Notes: generated by a model from the letters alone, not told the origin. A stretch of DNA of 64,000 nucleotides from Deltaproteobacteria bacterium (GCA_029261795.1 JAJDAP010000034.1:9858-73857); one strand, 5' to 3'. Positions 101 to 20,552 are shown, counted from the stretch's first letter. Numbers and translations: made by a program.

Positions 101-126
101 TACGGAAGAGTGGCGGGATCGTGACC
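101..126 (-). promoter_or_regulatory. Putative ECF promoter copy 1: GGTCAC-N16-CGTA
   Basis: Minus strand reads GGTCAC gatcccgccactcttc CGTA; -10 ends 34 nt before the TTG at 67. Confidence 0.75.
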
Positions 127-161
127 GCTACCGAGACGACTCGGCACGAACTGAGCCGGGA

Positions 162-878
162 TCAGGTTCCGGAGAAAAACGCCCGAGCCTGGATGGCGCT
201 GGTGACACCCAGGTAGCCGCCGGCAGCCGTCCCGGCGATCCAAGCAGCGAAGACCCAGACTGAGTTGTCTACCGATTGGAGAGCTACGCCGGGCAACAGC
301 AGGAGGAACATCGCCGCTGCGGGAATCATCGGCCGGGCCAACTGACCGCGCCCGACGCCCAGCACCAAAAATACGGAAGCCGCGCCGATCAAGAGCGTCG
401 CGACCAGACCGAAGCAGAACGCACTCGCGGGTAGGCCGGCGACGTCGAAGATCCGCCTCCCCAGATCGGTTGCGGTCCACCAGTTCAGAAAGTGCTGGTC
501 CGCGCACGCGGCCCCGCATATTCCAGCAATCCCGAGACCCAGGAGTGCCACAGAGGCGGAATGCGAGAGGGGTAGCGAAGGCGTACGCACTCCGAGAAAC
601 GCAATCGCGAAGCTCACGACCAGCAATCCGGCCCATACCATACTGAAGACCGTGACATGCCACGGTGGGTGGTGATCAAAGGGGTGTCCCGAGAGCAGCA
701 GCGTGACGCCGATCGCACCAACGACGCCCGCGACTCCTGCCGCAACCAGCAGCCGAGCCGTGCGACCGCCCCGGAGTTCGACATCGCTCCTGATCGCCGA
801 GAGGATGCCCGAACGGACACCGTCTCGAACCTCGGACCGGCGGCTGTCCTTCTCCATTCGCGAACCTACCTCGGTCAC
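162..878 (-). CDS. Multi-pass membrane protein, putative anti-sigma factor / metal sensor
   Basis: Directly downstream of the ECF sigma gene; about 6-7 hydrophobic segments; motifs HPFDHHPPWH and CGAACADQH; GTG start. Confidence 0.65.
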   Translation of the reverse strand: MTEVGSRMEKDSRRSEVRDGVRSGILSAIRSDVELRGGRTARLLVAAGVAGVVGAIGVTLLLSGHPFDHHPPWHVTVFSMVWAGLLVVSFAIAFLGVRTPSLPLSHSASVALLGLGIAGICGAACADQHFLNWWTATDLGRRIFDVAGLPASAFCFGLVATLLIGAASVFLVLGVGRGQLARPMIPAAAMFLLLLPGVALQSVDNSVWVFAAWIAGTAAGGYLGVTSAIQARAFFSGT

Positions 879-899
879 GGCCCGGTCTGAACGGGACGG

Positions 900-1481
900 C
901 TATCCAACCGGGAGCCCGAAGGCTCCATCTGGTCCCACCGACGCACGCAGCCTTCGGATCGCACGGGAGGCTGTCTTCTTGACGGCATCGACGGACTTGC
1001 CAAGATGGTTTGCAACCTCCGCGTATCCGACTCCATCGACCTTGGCGGCGAGCAGAACGTAACGCTCTTCGTTCGAGAGGAATTGCAGCAGTTGCATCGA
1101 CTGTTCGCGATCCGCCACTTCCCCCTCAGCGTTGCGTTGCTCAGCCCTCGGCTCACGGTCCTCGATCGAGAACTCATGGTGGCGAAAGGCACGTCGGTGG
1201 TCATCGACGAGTAGCCGGTTCGCGATCTGGAAGAACCAGGGGGTGAAAGGCCGATCGGAGTCATATCGATCCCGCGCCCGATGGATGCGCAGGAACAACT
1301 CCTGGTAGAGATCCTCGGCGCGCTCGGAAGATCCGGTTCGTTTGAGGAAGAAGGCGTAGGCCCGTGGTTCGTAGCGCCGAAACAGTTCGTCGAACGCGTC
1401 GCCGTCGCCGTCGCCGTAGTGCGCCATGAGCGTTTCATCTGACAGATCCCTCTGCTGCGCGAATCGTGCTGTATCTGACAT
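900..1481 (-). CDS. ECF (sigma-70 group 4) RNA polymerase sigma factor
   Basis: DETLMAHY..DAFDELFRRY, AEDLYQELFLRI, PFTPWFFQIANRLLVD (sigma2), YAEVANHLGKSVDAVKKTASRA (sigma4 HTH); start moved to ATG 1481 with AGGAGG RBS. Confidence 0.93.
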   Translation of the reverse strand: MSDTARFAQQRDLSDETLMAHYGDGDGDAFDELFRRYEPRAYAFFLKRTGSSERAEDLYQELFLRIHRARDRYDSDRPFTPWFFQIANRLLVDDHRRAFRHHEFSIEDREPRAEQRNAEGEVADREQSMQLLQFLSNEERYVLLAAKVDGVGYAEVANHLGKSVDAVKKTASRAIRRLRASVGPDGAFGLPVG

Positions 1482-1643
1482 ACGACCTCCTCTCGCGAAC
1501 GGTGACGAGAAAACGGCGATGCACATTGCGTGCCGCTGTGTGTAGCCCGCGCCCGCGAGCGCAGGGCGTTCGTAGGTGCGTCAGTTTGGCATAAGCCAAT
1601 GACCGGCGTGGCTTTCTGACCCATTCCTCGCCGCGGGGACGCA

Positions 1644-2870
1644 ATGGTGCAGGTTCTGCGCTCGCGGAACGGTAAGGTGGCGATCGACCGCCCTGGAGAC
1701 CCCGAATTGCAGCTGCACTGGCTCCTCGCCGTCGTCCTCATCACCGCCAAGCTGTTTGGAGTGGCGGCCCGCCGTTGGGGATTGCCTGCCGTCGTCGGAG
1801 AGATTCTGGCCGGCGTCGTGCTAGGCCCTTCTCTACTCGGCCTGCTCGAGATCCCGGGGTCCGATGGGAACGGCGATGCCCTGTCGGGGCTCGCACAGAT
1901 CGGGCTCTGCGTGCTGCTCTTCCGCGTGGGGCTCGAGACCGACCTCGACCAGGTCCGGCGTGTGGCAGGGTCGGCGGTGATCCTCGCAGGGGTCGGAATG
2001 CTGCTGCCCTTTGTGCTGGGGGTGTTGGGGGCTTCAGCCTTCGGGGTCGCCCTGCTTCCCGCTCTCTTCATCGGCGCAACCCTTACTGCCACGAGTATCG
2101 GGGTGACCGCCTCGGTGCTCGAAGAACTCCGAGCTGGTGGCACCCGGGCCGCCGCGCTGATCCTGGCAGCGGCCGTCATCGACGACGTGCTCGGTCTCGT
2201 TCTACTGGCCGCACTGATCGGGGTTGGCGCGGCACCGGGCAGCGCCGGGATCGAGGTCGGGATCGCGGTCGCCCAGGCCGTGGGGTTCCTGACGGCAGCG
2301 CTCTGGCTGGGGCCGCCCTTGGCCCGAGCGTCGGACCGTCTTGCCCGCTGGACTCGTTCGCAGAGCATCATCCTTCCGCTCGTCTTCGGCGCTCTTCTGC
2401 TGACGGCGGCCGCAGCCAAGGCCGCAGGGATGGAGATGATCATCGGCGCCTACGCCGCCGGGCTCGCGCTGGTCCGGCACCCGGAGCGCGCATGGCTCGA
2501 GACGAAGCTCGAAGCCGTGATCGAACTATTCACGCCGATCTTCTTCGTACTCGTCGGAAGCTCGATCGCCCTGGAGACGTTCGCGATGGGAACGCCTGCC
2601 GGTCGCACCACTGTGGGATTGGCCGCGCTTCTCTTCAGTGCCGCCATCCTCGGGAAGCTGCTGGCACCGCTCGCGATTCGCAACCTCGACGTTCCAGTCT
2701 TGGCGGTCGGCAGCGCCCTCGTGCCGCGAGGTGAGGTCGGGCTCATCTTTGCACAGGTGGGCCTGAGCGAAGGTGTCCTGAGGCCCGACCTGTTCTCCGC
2801 ACTGACGTTGGTGATCACTGCCACCACACTGGTCGGCCCCGTGATGCTCCGCAGGCTCTGGCGCTCCTGA
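1644..2870 (+). CDS. Cation:proton antiporter, CPA2/NapA-KefB-like family
   Basis: About 12 TM segments; GEILAGVVLGPS, LLFRVGLETD, TATSIG, AAVIDDVLG, LVPRGEVGLI motifs. Confidence 0.9.
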   Translation: MVQVLRSRNGKVAIDRPGDPELQLHWLLAVVLITAKLFGVAARRWGLPAVVGEILAGVVLGPSLLGLLEIPGSDGNGDALSGLAQIGLCVLLFRVGLETDLDQVRRVAGSAVILAGVGMLLPFVLGVLGASAFGVALLPALFIGATLTATSIGVTASVLEELRAGGTRAAALILAAAVIDDVLGLVLLAALIGVGAAPGSAGIEVGIAVAQAVGFLTAALWLGPPLARASDRLARWTRSQSIILPLVFGALLLTAAAAKAAGMEMIIGAYAAGLALVRHPERAWLETKLEAVIELFTPIFFVLVGSSIALETFAMGTPAGRTTVGLAALLFSAAILGKLLAPLAIRNLDVPVLAVGSALVPRGEVGLIFAQVGLSEGVLRPDLFSALTLVITATTLVGPVMLRRLWRS

Positions 2871-2900
2871 GCGACGCGCCCCGAGACCCGATCGCGATCG

Positions 2901-2927
2901 GGTCACCTCCGAGCGCGCGAGGCCGTA
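2901..2927 (+). promoter_or_regulatory. Putative ECF promoter copy 2: GGTCAC-N17-CGTA
   Basis: GGTCAC ctccgagcgcgcgaggc CGTA; 72 nt before ATG 2999; -35 overlaps the right arm of a perfect 20-bp palindrome (2885-2904). Confidence 0.72.
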
Positions 2928-2998
2928 CTACATGGCAGGCGCGAAGGTGGCGGTCGCACGGAGCGTATCGGGCACAAGCGCAAGCAAGGAGATGACAG

Positions 2999-3349
2999 AT
3001 GAGAACCGTTATCGCACTAGCCCTGTTCGTGGGGGCCGTGGCCCTGGTGCCGGCCTTCGCACTCGCGGGGAGCGACTCCCGGTCGGTCGAGCAGTTCGCA
3101 GTCGAGAAGGCGGAGACGCCGGAGGAGCACGCGGACCTGGAACGGCACTACCGCTCGTTGGCGGAAGAAGCGCGCGGACACGTACGCCACCACGAGAAGA
3201 TGGGAAGCTCCTACCGAATAGGCAAGCTGCACAACCGGCAGCGTATGGAGCGCCACTGCAAGAAAATCGCCGAGAGCTACGCCAGCACGGCCAAGGAATA
3301 CGAGGCACTCGCCGACCTCCACAAGGACGAGGCGAGGCAGAGCGAGTAA
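2999..3349 (+). CDS. Small secreted His-rich helical protein, putative periplasmic metal-binding protein
   Basis: Sec signal (..VPAFA); 8 His, 2 Met and 1 Cys in the mature part (EHADLERHY, GHVRHHEKM, MERHC, LHKD); AAGGAG RBS. Confidence 0.7.
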   Translation: MRTVIALALFVGAVALVPAFALAGSDSRSVEQFAVEKAETPEEHADLERHYRSLAEEARGHVRHHEKMGSSYRIGKLHNRQRMERHCKKIAESYASTAKEYEALADLHKDEARQSE

Positions 3350-3374
3350 TCACTCCATCAGTGAGGTTCATGTC

Positions 3375-3818
3375 ATGCGCCTTCTCGATGAGCTTCAGAA
3401 GTTCCTGCACCCGGAGCACATCCTGTCGAAGGATCGGAGCGGCGCGCTCGCGGACAACGAGATCCAAGCTGCGACCGCACTCCTGCTTCTCGAGGCCGCT
3501 CACGGAGATGAGGAATTCGTCTGGCGGGAACACCGCTTGATCGTCCAGGGGCTAGAGCGCGCGTTCGGACTGGCTAGACCCGAGGTGCTCCAGCTGCTCG
3601 AGCGTTCCGAAGAGATCCGGCCCCCTACGGTCCGCCTCGCGGACGTCACCCAGGTGATCATGGATCGCTACGACGAGACTCAGCGGCAGGAGATCGTTCG
3701 ACTCCTGTGGGCGATCGTAGATGCCGACGGAGTCGCCACGGAGTGGGAGAAGGTATTCGCCACGCACGTGGCGCAAGCGCTTGGGATCAGCGACGAGGCA
3801 GCAGCCCAAGGTCGCTAG
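3375..3818 (+). CDS. terB: TerB-family protein
   Basis: AATALLLLEAAHGDEEF..E, LWAIVDADG...WEKVF pattern typical of TerB-like folds. Confidence 0.8.
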   Translation: MRLLDELQKFLHPEHILSKDRSGALADNEIQAATALLLLEAAHGDEEFVWREHRLIVQGLERAFGLARPEVLQLLERSEEIRPPTVRLADVTQVIMDRYDETQRQEIVRLLWAIVDADGVATEWEKVFATHVAQALGISDEAAAQGR

Positions 3819-3894
3819 GACGCGACCCCAGCCGGCCAACTCTTCGTCCGGTATGCGTCGGCGGCAGACCTTGGCGATGACCCCGCGGCCCTTT

Positions 3895-4473
3895 CTAGCC
3901 GCGCGACGGCCGCCCGTGGAGACAGACTGAGAAGTAGTGCCCGAGTGCAATGCCGATGAACCCGATTCCCGCGAGCCCTTCCGCAGCCGCCACGACCTTC
4001 CCAAGCCTGGAGATCGGCGCTAGATCGCCATAGCCCACCGTCGTGATCGTCATGACGCTGAGATAGAGGGACTCGAAGAATAGGTCATGCAGACGCTCGA
4101 TGTGCACACCAAGCGTCACCGGATCGGCCGACCAGAGGAGCGGCAGCCCGACGAAGCTCGCCTCGGTGCTACTCGCCTGCGCGATCGCGTAGCTGCTCGC
4201 GAAAAGCACGATCAGGGCGCCATAGGCCTCCAGCAAAGCGGATAGTTGGAATCGGAGCCGTCCGCTCAGGATCCAGCGCAGCGTCCAGATCACTCCGGCG
4301 CACGGGACGACCACGCCAAGTACGAAGAGCCCGCTGAGGATCCATGGCGAAGGAACAGCGGCCTCCGCCGCGGAGCCGTGCATGCGCAATGAAATGACGA
4401 GCAGCAAACCAAGGTAAGGCGTGAGGCTCGCCGTCAACGTCGGCACAACAATCTGGAGGTGACTTGAATTCAT
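3895..4473 (-). CDS. Two-TM potassium channel pore protein (Ion_trans_2), no RCK domain
   Basis: Selectivity filter YLSVMTITTVGYGDLAP followed by inner helix; extra N-terminal TM segments. Confidence 0.88.
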   Translation of the reverse strand: MNSSHLQIVVPTLTASLTPYLGLLLVISLRMHGSAAEAAVPSPWILSGLFVLGVVVPCAGVIWTLRWILSGRLRFQLSALLEAYGALIVLFASSYAIAQASSTEASFVGLPLLWSADPVTLGVHIERLHDLFFESLYLSVMTITTVGYGDLAPISRLGKVVAAAEGLAGIGFIGIALGHYFSVCLHGRPSRG

Positions 4474-5189
4474 TGGCTCCTGCTTCCTTCTTCACGCAAT
4501 CCATCTGACGATCCAGTATGCAGTTGCGTCCCATGGCGGAGCCGAGAAACGGCGATGGGAATCTGCGCGGCAAGCTGCCTAGACCCCCAACGCGCGAGTT
4601 CAGTGACGGAGAGCCAACGCGTGCCGCCTCCGGGGTAGCGAAGGGCGCGCCACGGGCTCTCGAAGAATGGGACCTGTTGCTCCGAGAACTGCCCCGACCA
4701 CAGAAGAAGCCCCTCCGAACCTCCGTGTAGGGTGGCCCGGAAGCCGACTCCGGCCGCCCGTTGGGGCCGTGTCAGCGCGTTCCTCGGCGACCAGTGCGTG
4801 ACCTCGACCACCAGGAGCGCATCGACGCCGAGACGTTCCGCGGCAACGCGGGCGAGCCGGGCCGCATCACGGTGTAGGTCGGAGGACCGCGTGAGATTGG
4901 CGAGGGTGCCGCGCGTATCCTTGGCGGGCACCACGTCGACCCCTCGTTCCATCAGGGCCTCAGCGAGATAGTGGCCGACGTGTACGGCGGCCTCAGCGTA
5001 GCGCGCCGGGTCGATGGCGGACCGCCTCTCCACCTCGGGCGCAAGCGTCACCGAGGCCACTGCGACGCGATATGCCGACCCTTCGCGTCTCGCAACAGAC
5101 TGGCTTGCCGGAGCCCACGGCGCGCAGGCCAGCGCGCCGGTTGCTGCCAGGATGAGCACGCTCGAAACGCGCCGACTGAGTCCCACCAT
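4470..5189 (-). CDS. Hypothetical lipoprotein
   Basis: Lipobox ..GALAC at residue 22; GAGGAG RBS; ATGA overlap with the K+ channel gene. Confidence 0.7.
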   Translation of the reverse strand: MVGLSRRVSSVLILAATGALACAPWAPASQSVARREGSAYRVAVASVTLAPEVERRSAIDPARYAEAAVHVGHYLAEALMERGVDVVPAKDTRGTLANLTRSSDLHRDAARLARVAAERLGVDALLVVEVTHWSPRNALTRPQRAAGVGFRATLHGGSEGLLLWSGQFSEQQVPFFESPWRALRYPGGGTRWLSVTELARWGSRQLAAQIPIAVSRLRHGTQLHTGSSDGLREEGSRSQ

Positions 5190-5226
5190 GTTCTCCTCGG
5201 TCTACCGGTCTCTTGTGGCCCTGTAC

Positions 5227-5252
5227 TACGGGAGCGGCGTCGCCCTGTGACT
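5227..5252 (-). promoter_or_regulatory. Putative ECF promoter copy 3: AGTCAC-N16-CGTA
   Basis: Minus strand AGTCAC agggcgacgccgctcc CGTA; 38 nt before ATG 5189. Confidence 0.75.
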
Positions 5253-5327
5253 TCGAATGTCGTGGGGGAGCGTCCGCGGCGTCGCCTCTGCAGGCCGGTC
5301 GGCGGGTGCCGGCTGCACTTTTTCTCC

Positions 5328-5354
5328 AGTCACCAGATCGACCCGGATGCCGTA
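5328..5354 (+). promoter_or_regulatory. Putative ECF promoter copy 4 (mtrAB): AGTCAC-N17-CGTA
   Basis: AGTCAC cagatcgacccggatgc CGTA; 63 nt before ATG 5417. Confidence 0.78.
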
Positions 5355-5416
5355 GTACGCGTTGCAGCGGAGTTTGCAGTCCCGTGGGACGCAGCGGCGA
5401 GAAGGGCGATGTCACG

Positions 5417-6373
5417 ATGAACAGCTTGACAGCCTCCAAGCGAACGAGGATTGCCACACTCTGCGTAGGGTCGTTCGTAGCGGCCCTCGTGGCCTGCGTC
5501 AGCGTGGTCTGGACCCCGCTGGGGCCCCGCCGCACGGCCGACGTCGCAAACGCGGAACCCATCGGTGCTCCTGTCTGCGCGGCCTGTCACGAGCAGGTGC
5601 ATGGACAAGAGTCTCCGGCTCCCTTCCACGCGGACTGCGAGAGCTGCCATGGACCGGGAAGCCTTCACGCCGCGAGTGGCGACACTCAGCTCATCCGCTT
5701 CCCGGGTAACGACGACTGTCTCGCGTGTCACACGGAGGGCGTGGCCGAGCACATGGAGTGGGGGACCAGCGAGCACGCCCGCGCTGGGTTGTACTGCTCC
5801 GACTGCCACAATCCCCACAGCGGTGAGGAGAGCGAGCTCCGGCCCTTCGAGCAGGTCGCCCTCCCACGCATCGATCTCGAGTCCGCCCTCTGCGTCGAGT
5901 GCCACCGGGACGTGGCGTCGCGCCTGAAGTTTCCTTCGCACCATCCCGTGGCCGAGGGGGCGCTGGGATGCACCAGCTGCCACAACGCTCACGAAGACCG
6001 GCGCGTCTCGTTCGGTGATCGCAACGAGCGTTGTGCGACCTGCCACCAGGACTACATGGGCCCCTGGGTATTCGAGCACCCGCCGGTCGTCGAGGACTGC
6101 ATGACCTGCCATAACCCTCACGGCGCCGTTACCGAGAATCTCCTCGAGACGATCCAGCCCGTGATCTGTCTCTCCTGTCACTCCCTCCCGGACAGCCGAC
6201 ATCACACCACGGGCTCGTCCGGAATCCCCGGCCAATCGACCATCAGTGGCGACTACCCGACAGCGCCCGGGACGACCATCGGAACGCAGGAGGCCAGAGC
6301 CTTCTTGCGCCGGTGCACCGACTGCCATAGCGCGGTCCACGGATCCTATACCGATGAACACCTACGTCACTAG
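5417..6373 (+). CDS. mtrA: Decaheme c-type cytochrome, MtrA/DmsE/MtoA/PioA family
   Basis: Exactly 10 CXXCH (CAACH, CESCH, CLACH, CSDCH, CVECH, CTSCH, CATCH, CMTCH, CLSCH, CTDCH); GPWVFEHPPV..C..CHNPHG family signature; N-terminal signal with possible LVAC lipobox; start moved to ATG 5417. Confidence 0.93.
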   Translation: MNSLTASKRTRIATLCVGSFVAALVACVSVVWTPLGPRRTADVANAEPIGAPVCAACHEQVHGQESPAPFHADCESCHGPGSLHAASGDTQLIRFPGNDDCLACHTEGVAEHMEWGTSEHARAGLYCSDCHNPHSGEESELRPFEQVALPRIDLESALCVECHRDVASRLKFPSHHPVAEGALGCTSCHNAHEDRRVSFGDRNERCATCHQDYMGPWVFEHPPVVEDCMTCHNPHGAVTENLLETIQPVICLSCHSLPDSRHHTTGSSGIPGQSTISGDYPTAPGTTIGTQEARAFLRRCTDCHSAVHGSYTDEHLRH

Positions 6374-8483
6374 AGCCGCCATCCTCGCCGGCTACGTCCT
6401 CATTGCGACGCCGTTGCTGGCGGACGATCTGACACCGCGAGGCGATGTCACCGTGGGCATCCAGCTCTACCGCCCGGAGGGCCCATTCGAGCGCGACGAC
6501 ACGGCCTCGTTCTTCGACAAGTACCGGTACCTCAAGAACAAGGGCACCGATCTGCCGTTCTTCGTCGATCTGACGCACCTCGACCTGGGCCTCGTCCGCG
6601 ACGACGGAACCTACGCAGTTCGCTTGCAGCGCTGGAGCCCCGGGTGGTCGAACGATCGTGCCGAGCTGGAGGGGGGCTGGCCGGGAGTGTCGCTGCTGGC
6701 CGACTATCGTCGCTATCGGAGCGACGAGCTCCGTTTGTTCTCGAGTCCGACCGGCGTCGGCAGCGCATTCGCCAGCGTGTTCAACGACGACACGTCCGCG
6801 GACGACCGCTTCTTCGTGCGACGAACGAGTGCGGGGCTGGCGGTTCGCGTGCGTCCCGCAGGCTTCGACCACCCATCCGACCTCCTGAAGGAACTGGAGT
6901 TCTCCTCGCGATACGAGCACCGGAGCGGCCAGCGCCAGGATCGCTACGTGCTGAGCGGTTCCCAGGAGCGCGGTGCCGGGGGTCTCAATACGTCCCGCTT
7001 CCGGGCGTTCACCCGGGACATCGACCAGGACGTCACCAGCATCGGGACGCGGATCGTTTCGACTCCCTGGGATCTGCTCACCAGCGCTATCGAGTTGGAG
7101 TTCGAGAGTTTTCGCGAGCGCGCTCCCACTACCACGCTCGGCGCGGGAGAGCCGGGGAGTATCTCGGCCTTCGATCCGGTCGGTATTCTCGCCGGATTCC
7201 AGGATCCCCTGAAGTCACTGCGCGCTTTCAACTACGTCCCTGACACGGATCGCCTGTACGCGTCGCTGCGCGTCCGGCCCCATCTGGGACCGGTTCAATT
7301 CCACGGCGGCGCGTCTGTCACGCGCTTGAAGCAGGCGGGGAGTCGCGCGCCGGAGCAGATCGCCTTTGGCCTCGATGACAATTCGGTCACGACCTATTCG
7401 ATCTACGGCGCTGGCGAGTTTCCGCTGACCGATCAGTTGGCCCTCAACGGGTACGCGAAGTTCTGGAAGCGCCGCAACGCACTCGATTCGGGCAACATCC
7501 TATTCTCCAAGGATCAGACGGACGCCTTCCTCGAGCAGCTGCGCGAGGTGAAGAACGGCCTGGAGCTTCGCGCCACACCGATGGCGGGAACGGACCTGAC
7601 GCTGGGATATCGGGGACGCTTCGTCCGGCGCGACCTCGAGTTCCAGAAGAGCACCCGTTCCGTGGCGCCCGAGTTCACGATCATCGGTGAGGACACCACG
7701 ATACACACCGGCTACCTGGGCTGGAACCTTCGTCTGGTACGGAGCCTCCAACTCTCCGGGGAGGCGGGTTACGAGAACGGCACCGAAATCGGGTACCCGC
7801 GAGAGCTGGAGCGCGCGTACTACGCGAAGGCCCGAGTCTCCTACGTGCTGCCCCGCCCCGTCCCGATGACGCTCACGGCGTCCGGCCGCTTCCTCGACGG
7901 CGAGAGCGACGAGATCGAGCTACTGGGCGAATCAGCGGGAGCGCGGCGCAAGCAGTTCGAGGTGAGACGCTGGAACTACGACGTGACCTTGACAGCGGTT
8001 CCCAAGGAATCGCTCGTGGTCTTCGGCTCGTTCACCCAGCACCGCAACGAGGAACGGTTCGCGCACCTGCGCTCCAATATCCGCCGGTTCGAGGGACCGG
8101 TGCCGGCGAGCATCCTGAACTTCTTCATCGATTCGGTCCCGCAGTACGAAAGCGACGTACTGAGCGTCACCCTTGGTGGCAGCTACCAGATCAGCAAGAC
8201 ACTCGAGGCATCCCTGGCGACCACGGTCACCAGAACCCGCGTCGACATCGCGGGCGGAGGTGGAGCCGCCCGCGCCCTCGACGAAGTCAATCAGATCCGG
8301 AACCAGATCACGAGCATCGAGTGCGGCCTGTCCTATCGAGCCACCCGGCAGGTTCGGCTAGACCTGGGATACCGGTTCGACCGATTCCACGACGATGTCC
8401 GACTGGAGGCACTCGACTTCAGCACGCGCGAGCACACACTCTCGGTCAGCGTGACGATGGACCTCGATGCGCTGACCCCCTGA
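6354..8483 (+). CDS. mtrB: Outer-membrane beta-barrel porin, MtrB/PioB family
   Basis: About 709 aa, Sec signal, alternating amphipathic beta-strand pattern throughout, overlaps the 3' end of mtrA; family call rests mainly on size and synteny. Confidence 0.82.
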   Translation: MNTYVTRAAILAGYVLIATPLLADDLTPRGDVTVGIQLYRPEGPFERDDTASFFDKYRYLKNKGTDLPFFVDLTHLDLGLVRDDGTYAVRLQRWSPGWSNDRAELEGGWPGVSLLADYRRYRSDELRLFSSPTGVGSAFASVFNDDTSADDRFFVRRTSAGLAVRVRPAGFDHPSDLLKELEFSSRYEHRSGQRQDRYVLSGSQERGAGGLNTSRFRAFTRDIDQDVTSIGTRIVSTPWDLLTSAIELEFESFRERAPTTTLGAGEPGSISAFDPVGILAGFQDPLKSLRAFNYVPDTDRLYASLRVRPHLGPVQFHGGASVTRLKQAGSRAPEQIAFGLDDNSVTTYSIYGAGEFPLTDQLALNGYAKFWKRRNALDSGNILFSKDQTDAFLEQLREVKNGLELRATPMAGTDLTLGYRGRFVRRDLEFQKSTRSVAPEFTIIGEDTTIHTGYLGWNLRLVRSLQLSGEAGYENGTEIGYPRELERAYYAKARVSYVLPRPVPMTLTASGRFLDGESDEIELLGESAGARRKQFEVRRWNYDVTLTAVPKESLVVFGSFTQHRNEERFAHLRSNIRRFEGPVPASILNFFIDSVPQYESDVLSVTLGGSYQISKTLEASLATTVTRTRVDIAGGGGAARALDEVNQIRNQITSIECGLSYRATRQVRLDLGYRFDRFHDDVRLEALDFSTREHTLSVSVTMDLDALTP

Positions 8484-8513
8484 ACGCCGCTCGCGCGAGT
8501 CCGTAGCGGCGGG

Positions 8514-10040
8514 TCACGATCCTCCATCGGGACGCTTCGCGGGAAGCACCTCGTAGACGATCGCGGTACAGAAACTCAGCATGATGCCCGCGATGAAGAT
8601 CAACGGGCTGTAGGGAAGCACGGGGTCCTGGTAGACCTCGGCGCCCACCCCCGCGGAGCCGGCGAAACCGACAATGGCGAGTGTCAGCCCGACCGCGAGC
8701 GTCGCCCCCGCGATCCACGTTCGGCGCGTCTCCGACTCAGGGGCCTCGTCTGGCGCCCCGTCTTCAGGATGCGCGAGCGGCACGATCGGAAAGATCTTGG
8801 CGAAGAGCAGGAACGCCAGGCTCGCCAACCCGAACAGGCCCGCGACCACACTGAGCTCCACCCAGTTCGGAACGTAGTGGCCCTTCGCGTAGGGGAGCAG
8901 CATCCCGTCCGTCTGCGATGGGACGACGATCAGCAAGCGTTTCAGGATCGCACCGACGTTGATCACGGCTGCTGCTGCCACGTACCAGCCGATCCGCGTC
9001 GTCCGGCTCAGGAACCGCCAGAGCAGCAGACCGAACCCAAGCGCCAGGGTGCCTACCGTGGACCAGAACATCCAGGCGTACGAGCCGGACACCAGCGAGT
9101 GCTCGAGCGCGCGTTCGGCCGTGGGTGCCGCGTAGCCCGCGGTCAGCTCCTCCACGCCCATCAGGTAGAGATAGGCGAGCGTCAGGACACACTGGAAGTT
9201 CCCCAGGGTCCGGAACGCGGCCGCCTCGATCACGTCCTCCAGATGCATGAGCTTTCGGGCGGAGGCTGCAATGAGGGTCAGCATGGCCAGGCCCGAGGCC
9301 CCTGCGAGAACCACGAAGCTCGGCGCCTGGAGCGCGCTGAACCAGCCCGGCCGACCCGCCACGATCCCGAACACGAAGCCGAGCGTCGAATGGGCAACGA
9401 CCAGGAGCGGGAGGATGAGCAGGGAGAGCCAGAAACTCACCACGCGGTGCCGCGCCGCCTCGGCATGCGTGCCGCGGAACCCGCTTCCCCACAGACGGTG
9501 GAGCCACCTCCAACGCGAGGGAACGCTGGCGCACGTCGCCGCACACGCGCGGCCCGCGAGGAAGAAGTAGACGAGACTGGCGAACAGGTAGCCGGCGACG
9601 ACCAGCGTGAACGTTCCGAAGAAGGGTGATGACGGCCTCGCGTAGAGCGGGAGGTACAGCAGGCCATGCAACGGCCGGCCGAGATCGGCCATGATGGTCA
9701 TCCCGCCCATCAACAGCGCAATGATTGTGAGGAACTCGGCCATCCGCGTGAGTGGCCGGAGTTCCGGTAGTGGAAACAGCCGTACCAGCGCCGCCGCGCT
9801 GATCCCGGCAAAACTCACGCCCACGAAGTAGATGTCGAATGCGACGTAGAGCCCCCATGCCGCGCCGCCCTGGCCGATCGTGCGAAGACCGGTCGCGACC
9901 AGTCCCTCGCGAAGCTGAACGGAATAGGCCCACGCGCCCCACAGCGCCAGCGATGCGGAAACCCCGACGGCGGCCAACCAGTATCGGCCCGGGCGATCGA
10001 GCCCGAGGGCGTCCCTGCGTTCCTGGGTAGTTTGCTCCAC
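8514..10040 (-). CDS. NrfD/PsrC-family quinone-interacting membrane subunit (QrcD/ActC-like)
   Basis: WGLYVAFDIYFVG, MADLGRP..., SSPFF, HSTLGFVFG...RPGWFS, Y.PNWVEL motifs; about 10 TM plus 2 extra C-terminal TM. Confidence 0.9.
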   Translation of the reverse strand: MEQTTQERRDALGLDRPGRYWLAAVGVSASLALWGAWAYSVQLREGLVATGLRTIGQGGAAWGLYVAFDIYFVGVSFAGISAAALVRLFPLPELRPLTRMAEFLTIIALLMGGMTIMADLGRPLHGLLYLPLYARPSSPFFGTFTLVVAGYLFASLVYFFLAGRACAATCASVPSRWRWLHRLWGSGFRGTHAEAARHRVVSFWLSLLILPLLVVAHSTLGFVFGIVAGRPGWFSALQAPSFVVLAGASGLAMLTLIAASARKLMHLEDVIEAAAFRTLGNFQCVLTLAYLYLMGVEELTAGYAAPTAERALEHSLVSGSYAWMFWSTVGTLALGFGLLLWRFLSRTTRIGWYVAAAAVINVGAILKRLLIVVPSQTDGMLLPYAKGHYVPNWVELSVVAGLFGLASLAFLLFAKIFPIVPLAHPEDGAPDEAPESETRRTWIAGATLAVGLTLAIVGFAGSAGVGAEVYQDPVLPYSPLIFIAGIMLSFCTAIVYEVLPAKRPDGGS

Positions 10041-10042
10041 GG

Positions 10043-10903
10043 TCAGTGGCGCCTCTCACGTCGAAGATGGAAGACCTTGGGCTTCGTGCCGAGGTGCTCG
10101 AGCAGCTGGTCGGCGCGCGGGCTCGTCGCCGCGAGAGCCACCCGGCTCCCCGGATCGTTCAGGTCGCCGAAGACGATGGCCTCGGCGGGGCACGACTCGG
10201 CACAAGCCGGCAGCGACTGGAAGTCGGTATCGGACAGGCTGACCCCGTCGACCCTGGCGCTTTCTGTCACCGAACGGATCCGGTGGGAGCAGAACGTGCA
10301 CTTCTCCACGACGCCGGCGGGACGCGTGGCAACGTCGGGGTTCAAGGTGTTGAGGTGGCTGGTCGGCCACTCGGGGGCATCCCAGTTGAAGAAGCGGACG
10401 CCGTAGGGGCACGCGACCTCACAGAAGCGGCAGCCAATGCAGCGGTCGTAGATCTGGGCGACGATTCCGTCGCCAGTTTGATAGGTGGCGCCAACCGGGC
10501 AAACCGGAACACAAGGCGGGTCTTCGCAATGCAAACAGGGCAGCGGAAGCATTTCTGGAGCTGATTCGCTCCCCTCGGAACGGTCTTCGAGCGGCAACAG
10601 GTTCATCCACAGGATGTCGGTTCCGTCGCTCTCTTCGGCGCTGCCGGTGGCCGGTACGTTGTTTTCCGTGCGGCACGCCACCACACAGGCTCCGCAACCC
10701 GTACAACGATCGAGATCGATCGCCATGCCCCATTTTCGCTTCTCGTCATCCGTCGCGACGGTCCTCTCCCGCTCGGGCGAACCCGCCAGCGCGCGTCGCG
10801 GGGAGGACATCAGGAACGCCCATAGTGCGCTCGCTGCGACGAGCGCCGAAACCACGAAGCGATGGGCGAACGCCCGGCGCGTCAGATTGCGGGGGATCAT
10901 CAT
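10043..10903 (-). CDS. 4Fe-4S dicluster electron-transfer subunit (NrfC/QrcC/DsrO-like)
   Basis: Four cluster motifs CTGCGACVVAC, CLHCEDPPCVPVCP, CIGCRFCEVACP, CTFC..CAESCP; Tat-like TRRAF. Confidence 0.93.
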   Translation of the reverse strand: MMIPRNLTRRAFAHRFVVSALVAASALWAFLMSSPRRALAGSPERERTVATDDEKRKWGMAIDLDRCTGCGACVVACRTENNVPATGSAEESDGTDILWMNLLPLEDRSEGSESAPEMLPLPCLHCEDPPCVPVCPVGATYQTGDGIVAQIYDRCIGCRFCEVACPYGVRFFNWDAPEWPTSHLNTLNPDVATRPAGVVEKCTFCSHRIRSVTESARVDGVSLSDTDFQSLPACAESCPAEAIVFGDLNDPGSRVALAATSPRADQLLEHLGTKPKVFHLRRERRH

Positions 10904-10907
10904 TTCC

Positions 10908-13277: not shown

Positions 13278-13795
13278 TGGTGGCACGCCAGGCATTCGAG
13301 CGTGGCTCCGTATTGCGTGTGACACGACATGCAGTCCTCCATTGACTGCATCGACGCATCCGGTCGGCTGTAGGGCCGGGGCATCCGGGCGACGTCCACA
13401 TGGCACTCACCACAGGACATCTCGGCGAGCGACACATGCACTCGGTGGGAGAAATAGACGTGGCCGGGGTAGCGATTCACCTGGACGAACGGGATCTGCT
13501 CGCCGCGTGCGGCGTACCCGCTCACCTTGGCCAGCTCCGGCCGATCGGACGGCCCAGAATGGCATTGTGCGCAGACCCGGATGGAAGGCAGGCCCGCGTG
13601 GCGGTTGGTCCCCGCGCTCCCGTGGCACGCTGCGCACTCTAGCTGTACGTCGCCGACGTGGAGTGAATGATCGAAGGCGACGGGTTGCACGACCGCGGCT
13701 GGTCCCTCGCACGCTCGAGCAACTGCAAGGCCCACAACGAGAAAGGTTGCCGCAGACAGACCCGCGATCAGTGTCGGGAGGCGGATTCGCTCCAT
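13274..13795 (-). CDS. Membrane-anchored pentaheme cytochrome c (QrcA/ActA-like)
   Basis: 5 CXXCH (CAACH, CAQCH, CGECH, CMSCH, CLACH); FDHSLH and FSHRVH distal His motifs; N-terminal TM; GGAGG RBS (TTG 13798 is an alternative start). Confidence 0.9.
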   Translation of the reverse strand: MERIRLPTLIAGLSAATFLVVGLAVARACEGPAAVVQPVAFDHSLHVGDVQLECAACHGSAGTNRHAGLPSIRVCAQCHSGPSDRPELAKVSGYAARGEQIPFVQVNRYPGHVYFSHRVHVSLAEMSCGECHVDVARMPRPYSRPDASMQSMEDCMSCHTQYGATLECLACHQ

Positions 13796-13833
13796 CAACG
13801 ATCACCTCCCGGCTCGATCACGAACGATGAACC

Positions 13834-14235
13834 TCAGTCGGAGCCCGGCGAGGACTCGTCGGGCGTCTTCCCGAGCTCGGAGAGATAGGCCACGATCGAG
13901 TCGAGTTCTGCCTCCGTTCCCGTGAAGCCCATGGGATGCTTCCTTCCGTCCAGATCCACCTCCTTGCGAAGGAACGCAACGATCCACTCGGATTGATGCC
14001 GGTCGCCCACGAGGGAGAGGTCGGGGGGACCATTCGACGCGTCCTCCTCTCCGAACGGATCGTCTGCAACAGCAGGCGACGAGCCGAGCTTTTCGACCCC
14101 ATCCGTGGCAATGCCGTGGCAGAGGTTGCAGCGCTGCTGCAGGAACTTGTCCCTACCCTCCTCCGCGGCGGCAGGGGCCGCCGTGAGCAGAGCCGCGAAG
14201 GCAACCCACAACCCGCATGCAATGAGCTTCCACAT
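13834..14235 (-). CDS. Periplasmic monoheme cytochrome c
   Basis: Sec signal ..PAAA; CNLCH; PDLSLVG; HPMGF candidate Met ligand; GGAGG RBS before ATG 14235. Confidence 0.85.
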   Translation of the reverse strand: MWKLIACGLWVAFAALLTAAPAAAEEGRDKFLQQRCNLCHGIATDGVEKLGSSPAVADDPFGEEDASNGPPDLSLVGDRHQSEWIVAFLRKEVDLDGRKHPMGFTGTEAELDSIVAYLSELGKTPDESSPGSD

Positions 14236-14279
14236 CTTCCCTCCCCGAGCGAATCGCTCCATGGAGATCCTGCCGTGTA

Positions 14280-14306
14280 TACGGCACGAGCGTGCCGGAA
14301 GTGACT
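14280..14306 (-). promoter_or_regulatory. Putative ECF promoter copy 5 (cytochrome/Qrc-like operon): AGTCAC-N17-CGTA
   Basis: Minus strand AGTCAC ttccggcacgctcgtgc CGTA; 45 nt before ATG 14235. Confidence 0.78.
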
Positions 14307-14314
14307 CCGATAGG

Positions 14315-14341
14315 AGTCACCAGATTTCCCTGGCCCCCGTA
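14315..14341 (+). promoter_or_regulatory. Putative ECF promoter copy 6 (gdhA): AGTCAC-N17-CGTA
   Basis: AGTCAC cagatttccctggcccc CGTA; 20 nt before TTG 14361; shares AGTCACCAGAT with copy 4. Confidence 0.78.
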
Positions 14342-14360
14342 TTGTGGAGTGGAGAACTCC

Positions 14361-15635
14361 TTGGACGCACCCATTCGATCGACTGACGAGACACTTTGCC
14401 ACTGTCAGGAGGACCAGGCGCACTTCCTCGAGCGCGCCTTCGAGCAGCTGGGGCTCGACGACTCCCGGCGCCGGTTGCTCCTTCATTCCTTCCGTGAGAT
14501 ATCCGTGCAGATCCCGCTCGAAGTGCAGCGCAACGGACAACGCGAGGTCGAGACATTCACGGGCGTCCGCGTGCAGCACAACCACGCGAGGGGTCCGTTC
14601 AAGGGAGGGCTTCGTTTCCACCCACTGGTGGAGCAGGGAGAGGTTCGCGCGCTCGCGCAGCTGATGACCTGGAAGTCTGCGTTGGCCGACATCCCGTTCG
14701 GTGGTGCCAAGGGCGGGATCGCGGTGGATCCTCGCCAGCTGTCCACTGGTGAACTGGAAACGTTGACCAAGCGGTTCACCCAGAAGATGGCGCCCGTGAT
14801 CGGCGTCCACCGGGACATTCCTGCTCCGGATGTCGGCACCAGCCCGCAGGTCATGGCATGGATCTTCGAGGAGTACAGCAAGACGAACGGTCACACGCCC
14901 GCGATCGTCACGGGCAAACCTGTCGAACTGGGGGGAGCCGAGGGCCGCCTCGAAGCGACCGGCCACGGTGTTGCGTTCCTCACCGCGCGGGCGTGTCTCG
15001 GCCGCGACATCGACATCGCGGGAGCTCGTGTTGCTGTTCAGGGGTTCGGCAACGTGGGCATGCATACCGCGCGGCGTCTCGCCGAACTCGGGGCACTCGT
15101 GATCGCGGTCTCGGATGTCGACGGCGGCGTCATCTGCGAATCCGGCATCGATGTCCTCGAGGCAAGCGCCCATGTCGCCGAGTGCGGAAGCCTCGCGGGA
15201 TTTCGCGGAGGGGACCCGATTACCAACGCGGAGTTGCTTTCGCTTCCCTGCGACGTCCTGATTCCGGCCGCCCTCGATGGTTCGATCAACTGTGACAACG
15301 AGCCGGGCGTCCGCGCCGGGCTGGTCGTCGAAGCCGCGAACATGCCGGTCACCCACGGCGCGGACGCAGCCCTGAAAGAGAGGGGAGTCGAAGTAGTTCC
15401 GGATGTGCTCGCCAACGTCGGAGGCGTCGCGGCCTCCTACTTCGAGTGGGTCCAGAACCTGCAGCAGTTGCCGTGGAGCCGGGATGCACTCCTAGGTCGC
15501 CTCGAAGAGCACCTGGCTCGTGCCTTCGACACAGTGATCGCATTGCGAGAACATCGCGGTGTCGACCTTCGAACGGCCGCCTATGAGCTGGCCGTAGCGC
15601 GCGTGCTGCGCGCCGTCGAACTTCGCGGATTTTGA
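14361..15635 (+). CDS. gdhA: Glu/Leu/Phe/Val dehydrogenase (glutamate dehydrogenase)
   Basis: RVQHNHARGPFKGGLRFHP, MTWKSA, PFGGAKGG, DIPAPDVGT, VTGKP, QGFGNVG, EAANMP, SYFEWVQN; TTG start with GGAG RBS. Confidence 0.93.
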   Translation: MDAPIRSTDETLCHCQEDQAHFLERAFEQLGLDDSRRRLLLHSFREISVQIPLEVQRNGQREVETFTGVRVQHNHARGPFKGGLRFHPLVEQGEVRALAQLMTWKSALADIPFGGAKGGIAVDPRQLSTGELETLTKRFTQKMAPVIGVHRDIPAPDVGTSPQVMAWIFEEYSKTNGHTPAIVTGKPVELGGAEGRLEATGHGVAFLTARACLGRDIDIAGARVAVQGFGNVGMHTARRLAELGALVIAVSDVDGGVICESGIDVLEASAHVAECGSLAGFRGGDPITNAELLSLPCDVLIPAALDGSINCDNEPGVRAGLVVEAANMPVTHGADAALKERGVEVVPDVLANVGGVAASYFEWVQNLQQLPWSRDALLGRLEEHLARAFDTVIALREHRGVDLRTAAYELAVARVLRAVELRGF

Positions 15636-15711
15636 GGGTTCCAAGGACTGCGACGCAGCCACAAGCCGGTAACCCTCGAAGTTCGTGGCCCCGACTCGAT
15701 CCCGCGCGATG

Positions 15712-16380
15712 CTATTTGGCTGGCGCTTGGTCCGGGGGCGCCCGGAAGACCGCCAGGGTCGCCATCCCAGCGGCAGAGACGCTCATCCGTTCCAGGTTCG
15801 GGAGAGTTCGAATCGGCTCACGGTCGACAACGCGATAGGAGAAGGGGTTGCCGATTGCAGTGACGACCGCGAGCAGGAGCCTGGAGCGGGGCGGGGTAAA
15901 GAAGACGAAGACGGCCGTTCCTCCCGGCGCCAGCTTTCGCAACGCATCGCGAACGGTTGCGTCCGGCGTATCGAGGTGCGAGAGGAGCCAGCTGGAAACG
16001 ACGAAGTCGAAGGTGCCGCCGACGGCCTGCAGGTCGGTCGCGTCGCCGATGCGTAGCTCGATCCTGTCGTCCGCTTGCGCTCGGGCTCGAGCTCGCACCA
16101 GCATCTCTTCGCTCGAGTCGATCCCGAGGTAGGAACCGAACCCGCGGGTCCAGCGGAACAGGCGTTCGATGTTGATCCCGGTACCAGGAGCCAGCTCGAG
16201 GATTCGCGATTCGGCACCGATCCGCTCTCGAAAGAGCTGGTCGAGATCTTCCTCGATGGGACGAGTCCAGCGACCCCAGACGGCTCGGAACGCGTCATAG
16301 AAGCGCGCGAACCAGCTGTACACACGGCGGACTCGGTCCAGCTGGGGAGGGTTCACGGTTGCGTTGGTCCCGTTCGTCAT
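15712..16380 (-). CDS. Class I SAM-dependent methyltransferase (UbiE-like)
   Basis: ILELAPGTG motif I, GIDSSEEML, FDFVVSSWLLSH, LAPGG. Confidence 0.85.
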   Translation of the reverse strand: MTNGTNATVNPPQLDRVRRVYSWFARFYDAFRAVWGRWTRPIEEDLDQLFRERIGAESRILELAPGTGINIERLFRWTRGFGSYLGIDSSEEMLVRARARAQADDRIELRIGDATDLQAVGGTFDFVVSSWLLSHLDTPDATVRDALRKLAPGGTAVFVFFTPPRSRLLLAVVTAIGNPFSYRVVDREPIRTLPNLERMSVSAAGMATLAVFRAPPDQAPAK

Positions 16381-17039
16381 GGGAGTTGGTGCCTCGCCGG
16401 CTGCGCAGCGCGCTTCCAGCTGGGAATCCAGCGAGGCGTCACACGGGCGTACTCGGCGTAGGCCGGACCGAACTCCGTGCGCGCCTCCTCCTCTTCACGC
16501 AGTGCGAATCGCACGTACATGTGAACGAGGATTGGAAACATCACGAGCGTGATCAGTGTCGGCCACTGGAAGAGGAAGCCGGCAAGGATCGCGATGAATC
16601 CCACGTACTGGGGATGACGAATGCGCGAATAGGCTCCGGTCGTGGCGAGTCCACCTTCGCGTTGGGCGCGGTAGAGGATTGGCCAGGCGACCGAGAGCAG
16701 CCAGAAGCCACCGCCGATCAGGACATAGCTGAGCACATGGAAGGGATCGAAATGGGGGTCGCCCTCCCAACCGAGAAGCGTGTGCCAGAGATGGCCAGCT
16801 TCATGCGAAAAGATGTCGAGTTGTGGGAAGTGCTGCCCGAACCAGCCGGAGAGCAGATAGATGGTGAGCGGGAAGCCGTACATCTCGACGAACAACGCCA
16901 CGAGGAATGCGGAGAAGGCCCCGAACGAACGCCAGTCACGTGAGCTCTGCGGCTTCGCAAAACTGAAGGCGAACAGGATGAAGATGGCCGCGTTGAGCAC
17001 GACCACGGACCACAGGCCGTAGGCCGATTCGTGACTCAC
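16377..17039 (-). CDS. Isoprenylcysteine carboxyl methyltransferase (ICMT/PEMT)-family membrane protein
   Basis: FVEMYGFPLTIYLL, TTGAYSRIRHPQYVG, EEEE..FG.AY.EY; family commonly found beside copper-resistance genes. Confidence 0.88.
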   Translation of the reverse strand: MSHESAYGLWSVVVLNAAIFILFAFSFAKPQSSRDWRSFGAFSAFLVALFVEMYGFPLTIYLLSGWFGQHFPQLDIFSHEAGHLWHTLLGWEGDPHFDPFHVLSYVLIGGGFWLLSVAWPILYRAQREGGLATTGAYSRIRHPQYVGFIAILAGFLFQWPTLITLVMFPILVHMYVRFALREEEEARTEFGPAYAEYARVTPRWIPSWKRAAQPARHQLP

Positions 17040-17296
17040 GGTTCCTGGCCTGGCTGCGAGGCGTCACCCCCAGTGGCGTGCGATCCGGGACCCTTGTGCC
17101 CGCGGTGCATGAACACGTGCATCAGTGGACAGATCGCGAGAATCATCCATGGCAGATACGCGATCACGTGTGCCCGGTGCTCGGCCCACAGGAAGTAGGC
17201 TGCGGCAGCCGCAAACACACCAAAAGCGATGCGTCTGGAGAGCGCGCCGTCCGCGCCGGGCTCCTGGGTCACAGGGCTGGACCGCAGCTCATCCAT
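17036..17296 (-). CDS. DUF2933-family small membrane protein
   Basis: AEHRAH...LPWMILAICPLMHVFMHRGH signature; start moved to ATG 17296. Confidence 0.85.
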   Translation of the reverse strand: MDELRSSPVTQEPGADGALSRRIAFGVFAAAAAYFLWAEHRAHVIAYLPWMILAICPLMHVFMHRGHKGPGSHATGGDASQPGQEP

Positions 17297-17334
17297 CGGG
17301 TCCCCGGAAATCTTTGTTGCCCATCGTCCGAGAC

Positions 17335-17361
17335 TACGGCGCACGCCCCCGGGTGGTGACC
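17335..17361 (-). promoter_or_regulatory. Putative ECF promoter copy 7: GGTCAC-N17-CGTA
   Basis: Minus strand GGTCAC cacccgggggcgtgcgc CGTA; 39 nt before ATG 17296. Confidence 0.78.
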
Positions 17362-17365
17362 GATC

Positions 17366-17391
17366 GGTCACGATTCCGGGTCTTGAACGTA
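17366..17391 (+). promoter_or_regulatory. Putative ECF promoter copy 8 (cus operon): GGTCAC-N16-CGTA
   Basis: GGTCAC gattccgggtcttgaa CGTA; 46 nt before GTG 17437; shares GGTCACGAT.CCG with copy 1. Confidence 0.78.
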
Positions 17392-17436: not shown

Positions 17437-17709
17437 GTGGCACAATTCATTGGGGATATCGCTTTCCTGTTCGAACTGGGCCTCGTTGCGGTGGGGATCG
17501 TGCTGATTCATTTTGGACGCGAGCGCTCGGCCGGCATGCTCAGGACCGCGGGGTGGATCCTCGTCATAGGTGCCTTGGGCACCGCGATCTGCACTAGTGT
17601 CTTCTGGTTCCGGTACCTGCAGGCGGGCGACTTCGACCGGGCCGAGGCGGCTCCGTTCGTGGAGTTTGACCACGACCTCGATTCCCCCGGCATCGCGCTG
17701 CTCGGATGA
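17437..17709 (+). CDS. Small 2-TM hypothetical protein heading the cus operon
   Basis: GTG start with AGGAG RBS; two hydrophobic helices and an acidic C-tail; 90 aa. Confidence 0.6.
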   Translation: MAQFIGDIAFLFELGLVAVGIVLIHFGRERSAGMLRTAGWILVIGALGTAICTSVFWFRYLQAGDFDRAEAAPFVEFDHDLDSPGIALLG

Positions 17710-17757
17710 CGATGTGTGGTGCTCGCACGCGGCGACACAACACCAAGAGGCGGCGAG

Positions 17758-20549: not shown

Positions 20550-20552
20550 CGC

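Follow-up and report, generated by a model that had tools for sequence, protein, structure and literature searches.

Results

Genes and Motif Copies of the Island

The window, meaning the whole stretch of 64,000 nt analyzed here (C34:9858-73857 of the source genome), belongs to a metagenome-assembled genome (MAG) labelled Deltaproteobacteria bacterium. Near its left end it carries a gene for an extracytoplasmic function (ECF) sigma factor together with repeated copies of a promoter-like motif, GTCAC-N16/17-CGTA. The source genome comprises 5.74 Mb in 139 contigs (65.6% G+C, 91% complete), and the DNA runs containing the stretch came from a biofilm metagenome. The closest loci outside it are found in MAGs labelled Myxococcota or 'Deltaproteobacteria'. 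Homologues of the sigma factor, with 59-71% identity, were detected in 22 loci from other MAGs, which are referred to below as the relatives. Genes were identified by Pfam searches, and start codons were picked by ribosome-binding site and homology.

The sigma gene and the motif copies lie on an accessory island of about 34 kb, which begins at the contig end, 9.9 kb to the left of the window, and extends to about 23.7 kb within it. Ten transcription units were distinguished in the island, nine of them with the motif.

The ECF sigma factor, the presumed cognate sigma of the motif, is encoded at 900..1481 on the minus strand. The neighboring gene (162..857, minus strand) encodes a protein with six transmembrane (TM) helices, designated B, which is a candidate anti-sigma factor. 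One motif copy (copy 2; 1481..1506, minus strand) is located at the sigma gene itself, and a sigma-54-type -24/-12 element, CGGCACGCAATGTGCA, was found at 1520..1535 (minus strand). Copy 1 (101..125, minus strand; GTCAC-N16-CGTA) scored 21.9 bits on a position weight matrix (PWM) that was trained on relatives only and used with a genome-wide cut-off of 16 bits. Its predicted target is a leftward operon with a TTG start at 67, which continues to 9.9 kb beyond the window and encodes, on the minus strand, a porin-like protein, a cytochrome c, two unknown proteins, a second TolC-membrane fusion protein (MFP)-resistance-nodulation-division (RND) system and a cupredoxin.

The one unit of the island that lacks the motif is the Na+/H+ exchanger gene (1644-2870, plus strand), which is divergent from the sigma gene; the exchanger lacks it in the relative L005 as well. 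Copy 3 (2902..2927, plus strand) is predicted to drive the genes of a small His-rich secreted protein (2999-3349) and of TerB (3375-3818), both on the plus strand. Copy 4 (5227..5251, minus strand) would transcribe a lipoprotein-like gene (4470-5189) and a K+-channel-like gene (3895-4473), both on the minus strand. For copy 5 (5329..5354, plus strand), the predicted targets are a multihaem cytochrome c (5417-6373) and an MtrB/PioB-like outer-membrane barrel ending at 8483, again on the plus strand.

Copies 6 and 7 stand back-to-back in the arrangement GTGAC-N10-GTCAC. The former (14280..14305, minus strand) is the predicted promoter of an operon encoding a cytochrome c, a molybdopterin oxidoreductase, a 4Fe-4S protein and NrfD (14262/14235 down to 8514, minus strand), and the latter (14316..14341, plus strand) that of glutamate dehydrogenase (GDH; about 14361-15635, plus strand). 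Copies 8 and 9 are likewise paired, as GTGAC-N6-GTCAC. Copy 8 (17335..17360, minus strand) is predicted to serve a DUF2933 gene (17296-17036) and the genes of an ICMT-like methyltransferase and an S-adenosylmethionine (SAM) methyltransferase, which extend down to 15712 on the same strand. Copy 9 (17367..17391, plus strand) is predicted to serve a small membrane protein (17440-17709) and the CusCBA-like efflux genes (17716-23681), all on the plus strand.

Eight of these copies had been listed in a preliminary description of the stretch and were all found where claimed; each had been given one base too long, from a leading R (RGTCAC) that is not conserved in relatives. Its statement that the motif precedes 8 of about 10 units was correct for those eight and missed the ninth, conserved copy at 1481-1506(-). 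CCGTA was confirmed at seven of the eight sites, as were two longer -35 strings, AGTCACCAGAT, common to the copies at 5329 and 14316, and GGTCACGAT.CCG, common to those at 101 and 17367. The sites point toward start codons, with a gap of 19-71 nt between CGTA and the start codon, where 20-72 nt had been given.

Motif Frequency and Locality

In the window, GTCAC-N16/17-CGTA was matched 10 times, whereas 100 dinucleotide-preserving shuffles gave 0.33 matches on average and never more than 2. All ten matches fall between 101 and 23488, and about 1.3 kb of intergenic DNA contains nine of them. The tenth exact match (23464..23488, minus strand) lies antisense in the cusA-like gene, on a conserved stretch coding for PIMMTVT. 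It scored below 16 bits on the PWM and has no equivalent in the CusA homologues of relatives; as it is not conserved there, it was taken as probably due to chance.

Throughout the genome, 44 matches were counted, 10 of them in positions 1-23.5 kb of the window, and the 34 matches outside the island correspond to the background rate. Across spacer lengths, the counts of off-island matches displayed a three-base periodicity, which is typical of chance matches in coding sequence. The preliminary description had named equal frequency in random or coding sequence as the outcome that would speak against the motif, and the counts were far from it.

Spacer length was tightly restricted. Within the island, spacers of 16 and 17 nt occurred four and six times, respectively, and every other length from 10 to 24 nt at most once. 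In the 302 kb of the 22 sigma-bearing relative loci, the motif was found 76 times, with spacers of 16 or 17 nt only (32 and 44 times; 0-4 matches for each other length from 10 to 24 nt). Reversed, swapped and single-base-variant control patterns remained at background, and GTCAC..CGTC, which has an ECF41-like -10 element, was not enriched.

The extended consensus reads GTCAC[C/G]aTTc ... cCGTA[G/T]T[A/C]C. The -10 sequence CGTA of the preliminary description is present, within an element that is longer than was stated: cCGTA[G/T]T[A/C]C was seen in the real sites and was missing from background matches elsewhere in the genome. On the PWM, all eight previously listed sites were among the top 20 of the 29 genome-wide matches at or above 16 bits. 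The high scorers outside the island (C19, C82, C137, C116, C3 and C14) were rejected as regulon members, being situated inside open reading frames (ORFs) with no downstream start codon or ribosome-binding site. From this distribution, the regulon appears to be confined to the island.

No sigma-70 consensus promoters were found in positions 1-19 kb, an absence that fits control by an alternative sigma factor and constitutes weak evidence for it. In genome G000, a different pattern, GGAAC-N16-CGTA, was counted 62 times, versus 43-46 times at the same-codon-phase spacers 13 and 19, an excess that might reflect a further ECF regulon.

The Sigma Factor and Its Control Region

The island sigma consists of 193 aa with sigma2 and sigma4 domains only (Sigma70_r2, 1.2e-15; Sigma70_r4_2, 2.3e-8) and contains no cysteine. 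The only model it passed was the superfamily model TIGR02937 (86.4 bits, cut-off 42.9), by which it is assigned to the ECF (group 4) sigma-70 family. Members of this family have these two domains alone and a length of about 170-220 aa, and their target promoters combine a conserved -35 element with a CGT-type -10 element at a distance of 16-17 nt, a pattern that agrees with the motif. The best NCBIfam subfamily model, PRK12513, gave 101 bits against a cut-off of 206, and by these profile scores the protein fits no curated subfamily. Its PDB relatives (SigE, SigL, SigW and CnrH) were matched at the generic ECF level, with an E value of 2e-8 for CnrH (4cxf). The gene is single-copy in the genome, which also encodes at least five other ECF paralogues with no more than 36% identity to it. 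The window contains a second ECF sigma gene (61000-61518, minus strand), whose product shares 34% identity with the island sigma; no GTCAC/CGTA motif lies close to it.

At the sigma gene, motif copy 2 reads GTCAC-cgttcgcGAGAGGAGGt-CGTATG. The ribosome-binding site, GAGAGGAGG, lies within its spacer, and the A of CGTA is at the same time the A of the ATG start codon. An ECF motif at this position was found in 17 of 23 loci (the window and 16 of the 22 relatives), and CGTA is fused to an in-frame ATG in 16 of the 17 motif-bearing sigma genes. The layout was also seen in L043 and L045; in one of the 16 relatives it is shifted by one base. ORFs beginning at the fused ATG encode sigmas of 189-195 aa, and the segment before the invariant Met19 varies from 11 to 22 codons.

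CGGCACGCAATGTGCA ends 13 nt (14 nt counted from its GC) upstream of the GTCAC of copy 2. As a sigma-54 (RpoN) promoter was counted GG-N10-GC with TGGCAC / TTGCW at -24/-12, and by its sequence the element at 1520-1535(-) qualifies as one. In 19 of the 22 relative loci, an element of this type, with the form TGGCAC-N5-TGCA across loci, precedes the sigma gene, compared with about 0.008 expected per locus, and its distance to GTCAC is 13-14 nt in all but one locus having both. When 14 upstream regions were aligned, only three blocks were conserved: the -24/-12 element, GTCAC and CGTATG. The genome carries rpoN and 19 genes for bacterial enhancer-binding proteins (bEBPs), and the conserved -24/-12 element suggests that expression of the sigma gene needs RpoN and such a protein.

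A weakly conserved block, GCCAC...GTGGGGC, was observed about 60-90 nt upstream of the sigma-54 element (about 1590-1625, minus strand, in the window), with a variant, (T)GGGGC/TGCC after GCCAC, in many loci of the alignment. This block might be a bEBP site.

Transcription from the sigma-54-type promoter would start 2-3 nt before GTCAC, giving a leader of about 27 nt that includes the ribosome-binding site and the AUG. At ECF promoters, transcription starts several nucleotides downstream of the -10 element. A start several nucleotides after the CGTA of copy 2 would fall inside codons 2-4, so that ECF transcripts would not carry the translation signals of the sigma. A leaderless sigma mRNA beginning at the A of CGTATG was rejected, as its start would directly abut the -10 element. 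A short isoform translated from Met19 is not favored; a ribosome-binding site before Met19 is not consistent across loci, and none is present in the window.

Protein B and the Role of the Nested Motif

Protein B (231 aa, six TM helices) adjoins the sigma gene in 21 of the 22 relative loci and has its own ribosome-binding site. In the alignment, HPFxHHPPWH, GICGAxCPDQHF and ALCFG are invariant, and an N-terminal helix, REGVRSGIL..DVELRGGRTARLL, is conserved. At least 389 unnamed metagenomic homologues were found, with no Pfam domain. In the AlphaFold2 (AF2) model, a long N-terminal helix precedes the six TM helices, with a predicted local distance difference test (pLDDT) value of 74. No relatives of B were recovered by Pfam at E<=10, by NCBIfam or by Foldseek comparison of the AF2 model with the PDB. 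From its position and features, B is presumed to be the cognate anti-sigma factor and sensor.

Two distant relatives differ from the window in the placement of the motif. In G030 (L040, G030:C2), the sigma gene has a sigma-54-like element and no ECF motif at its start, and a canonical ECF motif lies in the sigma-B intergenic region, upstream of B (9883-9908, minus strand). In G035 (L041, G035:C13), B is unlinked from the sigma gene and located beside cusCBA, with its own ECF motif (5769-5794, plus strand), which stands back-to-back with that of cusC. In all three layouts, that of the window, of G030 and of G035, the ECF promoter is thus predicted to feed B and not a translatable full-length sigma.

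Two sigma-B pairs were observed back-to-back in L017 (8287-11282); identity to the proteins of the window is 50% for the paralogous sigma and 47% for its B. The sigma gene examined in this locus had no exact motif at its start. In L004 (13186-13656), L010 (11367-11888) and L012 (11356-11808), B is followed by a Haem_bd (PF14376) gene that carries a motif copy, unlike in the window, where no Haem_bd gene follows B.

For the sigma gene alone, it has to be considered that GTCAC...CGTATG is no promoter, and that the ECF holoenzyme blocks the overlapping sigma-54 promoter there or that the sequence acts at the RNA level in the 5' untranslated region (5'UTR). The overlap of the -10 element with the start codon and the onset of the motif 2-3 nt after the predicted sigma-54 start agree with this explanation. 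So does the base at +2 after CGTA, which is G at the sigma-gene copies, as against 66% T and only 1% G at the other sites. However, the C at +4 of the extended consensus is kept in 70% of the sigma-gene copies, and G030 and G035 have an ordinary motif directly upstream of B, which suggests that the conserved role is transcription toward B. A non-promoter role of copy 2 is accordingly regarded as rather unlikely, and a nested ECF promoter is preferred.

Association of the Motif with the Sigma Factor in Relatives

Among the relatives, the motif precedes homologues of the sigma, the small secreted protein, cusC, GDH (L003 and L009), DUF2933 (L004), TerB, unk248 and the porin-like gene. The small secreted protein is its commonest target, in more than 10 loci, mostly with a gene that is transcribed divergently from that of the sigma. 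In relatives, the motif was also found in front of genes for further cytochromes c, Haem_bd, Usp, Sel1, TerC, LOG and MFP. The same motif was kept in loci whose sigma is only 48-58% identical.

Of 41 related genomes, 8 carried the sigma, and the genome of the same genus was not among them; the system is therefore considered accessory. Upstream of cusC homologues, the motif was found in three of four sigma-bearing genomes and in none of eight sigma-less genomes, even when one mismatch was allowed. In sigma-bearing G000, G031 and G035, an exact back-to-back pair occupies this position, and one of the motif-less, sigma-less genomes carries a CusC with 78% identity. A ninth sigma-less genome (G009) was left out of this comparison, as its single exact match beside cusC points away from cusC. 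In these genomes the motif tracks the sigma and not the gene family.

In L006, two motif copies were observed facing each other and overlapping between divergent genes (4243-4301; plus strand 4243-4267, minus strand 4276-4301), an arrangement in which the predicted transcripts would share sequence at their 5' ends. Two loci with the title 'uncultured Spirochaetaceae' (L009 and L010) contain a sigma with 62-65% identity, B and a CusA with 78-85% identity, which suggests mis-binned or mislabelled MAGs or a transfer of the island outside Myxococcota.

The motif could also be a real promoter read by a different sigma encoded elsewhere, with the island sigma only a target. The pairing of island sigma and motif is inferred from their co-occurrence, the genome holds the ECF paralogues mentioned above, and in G035 the nearest motif is 3.5 kb away from the sigma, which carries none itself. 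Against this, the motif clusters around the island sigma family in at least 22 loci from different MAGs, is missing upstream of cusC in relatives without this sigma and is at background elsewhere in the genome. The paralogues are also distant in sequence, including the one at 61000-61518, which has no motif nearby. Recognition by another sigma is judged improbable. The proposal of the preliminary description that these are ECF-type promoters recognized by the product of 900-1481 was supported by all available sequence tests.

That GTCAC is instead the half-operator of a dimeric transcription factor, with CGTA incidental, is suggested by the near-perfect GTCAC palindromes in two intergenic regions of the window (14.3 and 17.36 kb), but is rejected as extremely improbable, because the half-site gap is variable (10, 6 and about 77 nt in the window, and widely so in relatives) and CGTA is invariant at exactly 16/17 nt within an extended consensus, always oriented to the downstream gene, while five sites are single and no transcription-factor gene is conserved among the 22 relative loci.

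Discussion

The sequence GTCAC-N16/17-(c)CGTA(k)T(m)C is very probably the promoter signature of the ECF sigma encoded at 900-1481, which would be a strictly local regulator, the nested promoter at its own gene included. According to the mechanism proposed here, RNA polymerase core together with this sigma would initiate transcription at nine promoters, in each case a few bases downstream of CGTA. The predicted regulon comprises two RND metal-efflux systems, a cupredoxin, the porin-like protein with its cytochrome c, and the multihaem cytochrome with its MtrB-like barrel. It would also include a Qrc-like oxidoreductase, GDH, TerB, DUF2933 with the methyltransferases, and the small His-rich periplasmic protein. 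Protein B, with its six TM helices and invariant His/Cys clusters, would act as anti-sigma and sensor, presumably of metal.

The transcript from the sigma-54-type promoter at 1520-1535 would supply the sole ribosome-binding site and AUG for the full-length sigma. The ECF promoter is embedded in the 5'UTR of this predicted transcript, with its -10 element on the start codon, and ECF-driven transcripts would carry B, at most a sigma beginning at Met19, and no full-length sigma. Sigma-54 would thus prime the synthesis of sigma and B, after which active sigma would raise B, resulting in negative feedback.

Several observations weigh against this interpretation. The Na+/H+ exchanger unit of the island has no motif, and six of the 23 sigma genes have none at their start. 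No bEBP gene was found on the contig, nor did any relative have one within 10 kb, so that the sigma-54 reading is drawn from sequence alone. No similarity of B to known anti-sigma domains was detectable in Pfam, NCBIfam and PDB fold searches. RNA runs were sought for the window and two relatives, and none was found. The evidence that pairs the sigma with the motif is one of co-occurrence, strong as such, and is not proof of binding. Moreover, whole-genome motif counts in the 41 related genomes failed to separate sigma-bearing from sigma-less genomes. These counts are considered uninformative, because a background of about 10-20 matches per genome swamps about 10 real sites and because the pattern used, N{16,17}CCGTA, was one base off and read spacers of 17/18.

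When described promoters are considered, the -10 element of B. subtilis sigmaW is CGTA, as it is here, whereas its -35 element is TGAAAC instead of GTCAC. The ECF41 promoter, TGTCACA-N16-CGTC upstream of S. meliloti rpoE9 (PMC6180224), shares the -35 core GTCAC and a spacing of 16-17 nt. ECF41 sigmas carry a SnoaL-like C-terminal extension of about 100 aa and have no anti-sigma factor, whereas the island sigma has no extension and is accompanied by a conserved membrane partner. Membership in ECF41 was rejected on these grounds, given the length of 193 aa, the partner protein and a -10 element of CGTA, not CGTC. The likeness to the ECF41 -35 and sigmaW -10 elements noted in the preliminary description consequently applies to the promoter elements and not to the sigma. 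The CorE type (ECF238), which needs a Cys-rich C-terminal extension and lacks an anti-sigma factor, was also rejected for this cysteine-free protein. The GTCAC motif was not found in the main text of Casas-Pastor 2021 or in Todor et al. 2020.

SigmaF/NrsF of Caulobacter crescentus is a metal-responsive ECF system with a Cys-dependent anti-sigma factor of six TM helices (DUF1109) (PMC3511200). The two systems are alike in a small ECF gene followed by one for a protein of about 215-230 aa with six TM helices, a short cytoplasmic N-terminus and conserved cysteines, and in a small, local, metal-linked regulon (PMC3511200). In contrast to NrsF, B has an invariant His cluster, and B and seven homologues gave no DUF1109 match at E<=10. 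The promoter also differs, GTCAC-N16/17-CGTA here versus GTAACC-N16-CGAA for SigmaF, and the SigmaF/NrsF type was rejected.

In Cupriavidus metallidurans, the ECF sigma CnrH of the CnrH/CnrYX system (ECF291) controls the cnrCBA RND metal-efflux genes (PMC7826278). CnrH is likewise a local ECF regulator of an adjacent RND heavy-metal efflux operon and is held by a membrane-anchored partner (PMC7826278). This type was rejected as well: no CnrY/CnrX-like genes were found in 22 loci, neither B nor the small secreted protein matched a Pfam family, and the membrane partner of the island sigma, with its six TM helices, belongs to a family that has no name. With nine predicted promoters, the regulon is also far larger than that of CnrH, and the sigma gene has a sigma-54-type promoter.

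Control of ECF genes by sigma-54 has been described for hrpL, via HrpS, and for E. coli rpoE P2, via QseF (PMC8103513). E. coli rseA P3 is a sigmaE-dependent promoter that transcribes the anti-sigma without the sigma (PMC8595263). The present arrangement differs from these cases in that the ECF promoter is nested in the 5'UTR of a predicted sigma-54 transcript, its spacer containing the ribosome-binding site and its -10 element the start codon, and in that this layout is conserved across many MAGs. No described case of an ECF promoter nested in this way was found.

Taken as a whole, the locus is a new, uncharacterized instance of a well-known kind of system, extending to Myxococcota MAG loci. 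Its novelties for specialists are the unclassified His/Cys partner with six TM helices and the conserved nested sigma-54/ECF promoter on the sigma start codon. It is possible, though doubtful at present, that the sigma and B form an undescribed Myxococcota ECF sigma/anti-sigma group whose two-sigma circuit acts as a hard-wired negative-feedback or pulse generator over the metal/electron-transfer island of about 34 kb.

The nested promoter is a compact regulatory design and a case in which two holoenzymes would share one stretch of DNA. If the pairing is true, GTCAC/CGTA and the island sigma are a candidate orthogonal sigma/promoter pair for synthetic biology. For uncultured Myxococcota, the analysis provides a testable regulon map of about 34 kb, with nine predicted promoters, one sigma and one candidate sensor. 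Many of the genes covered by the map are without an assigned function, among them unk248, the DUF2933/ICMT cluster and the genes of protein B and the His-rich periplasmic protein. According to the map, a single switch would govern two metal-efflux pumps together with a porin-cytochrome pair and a Qrc-like complex, and such a shared switch suggests that the electron-transfer proteins are part of the metal-stress response.

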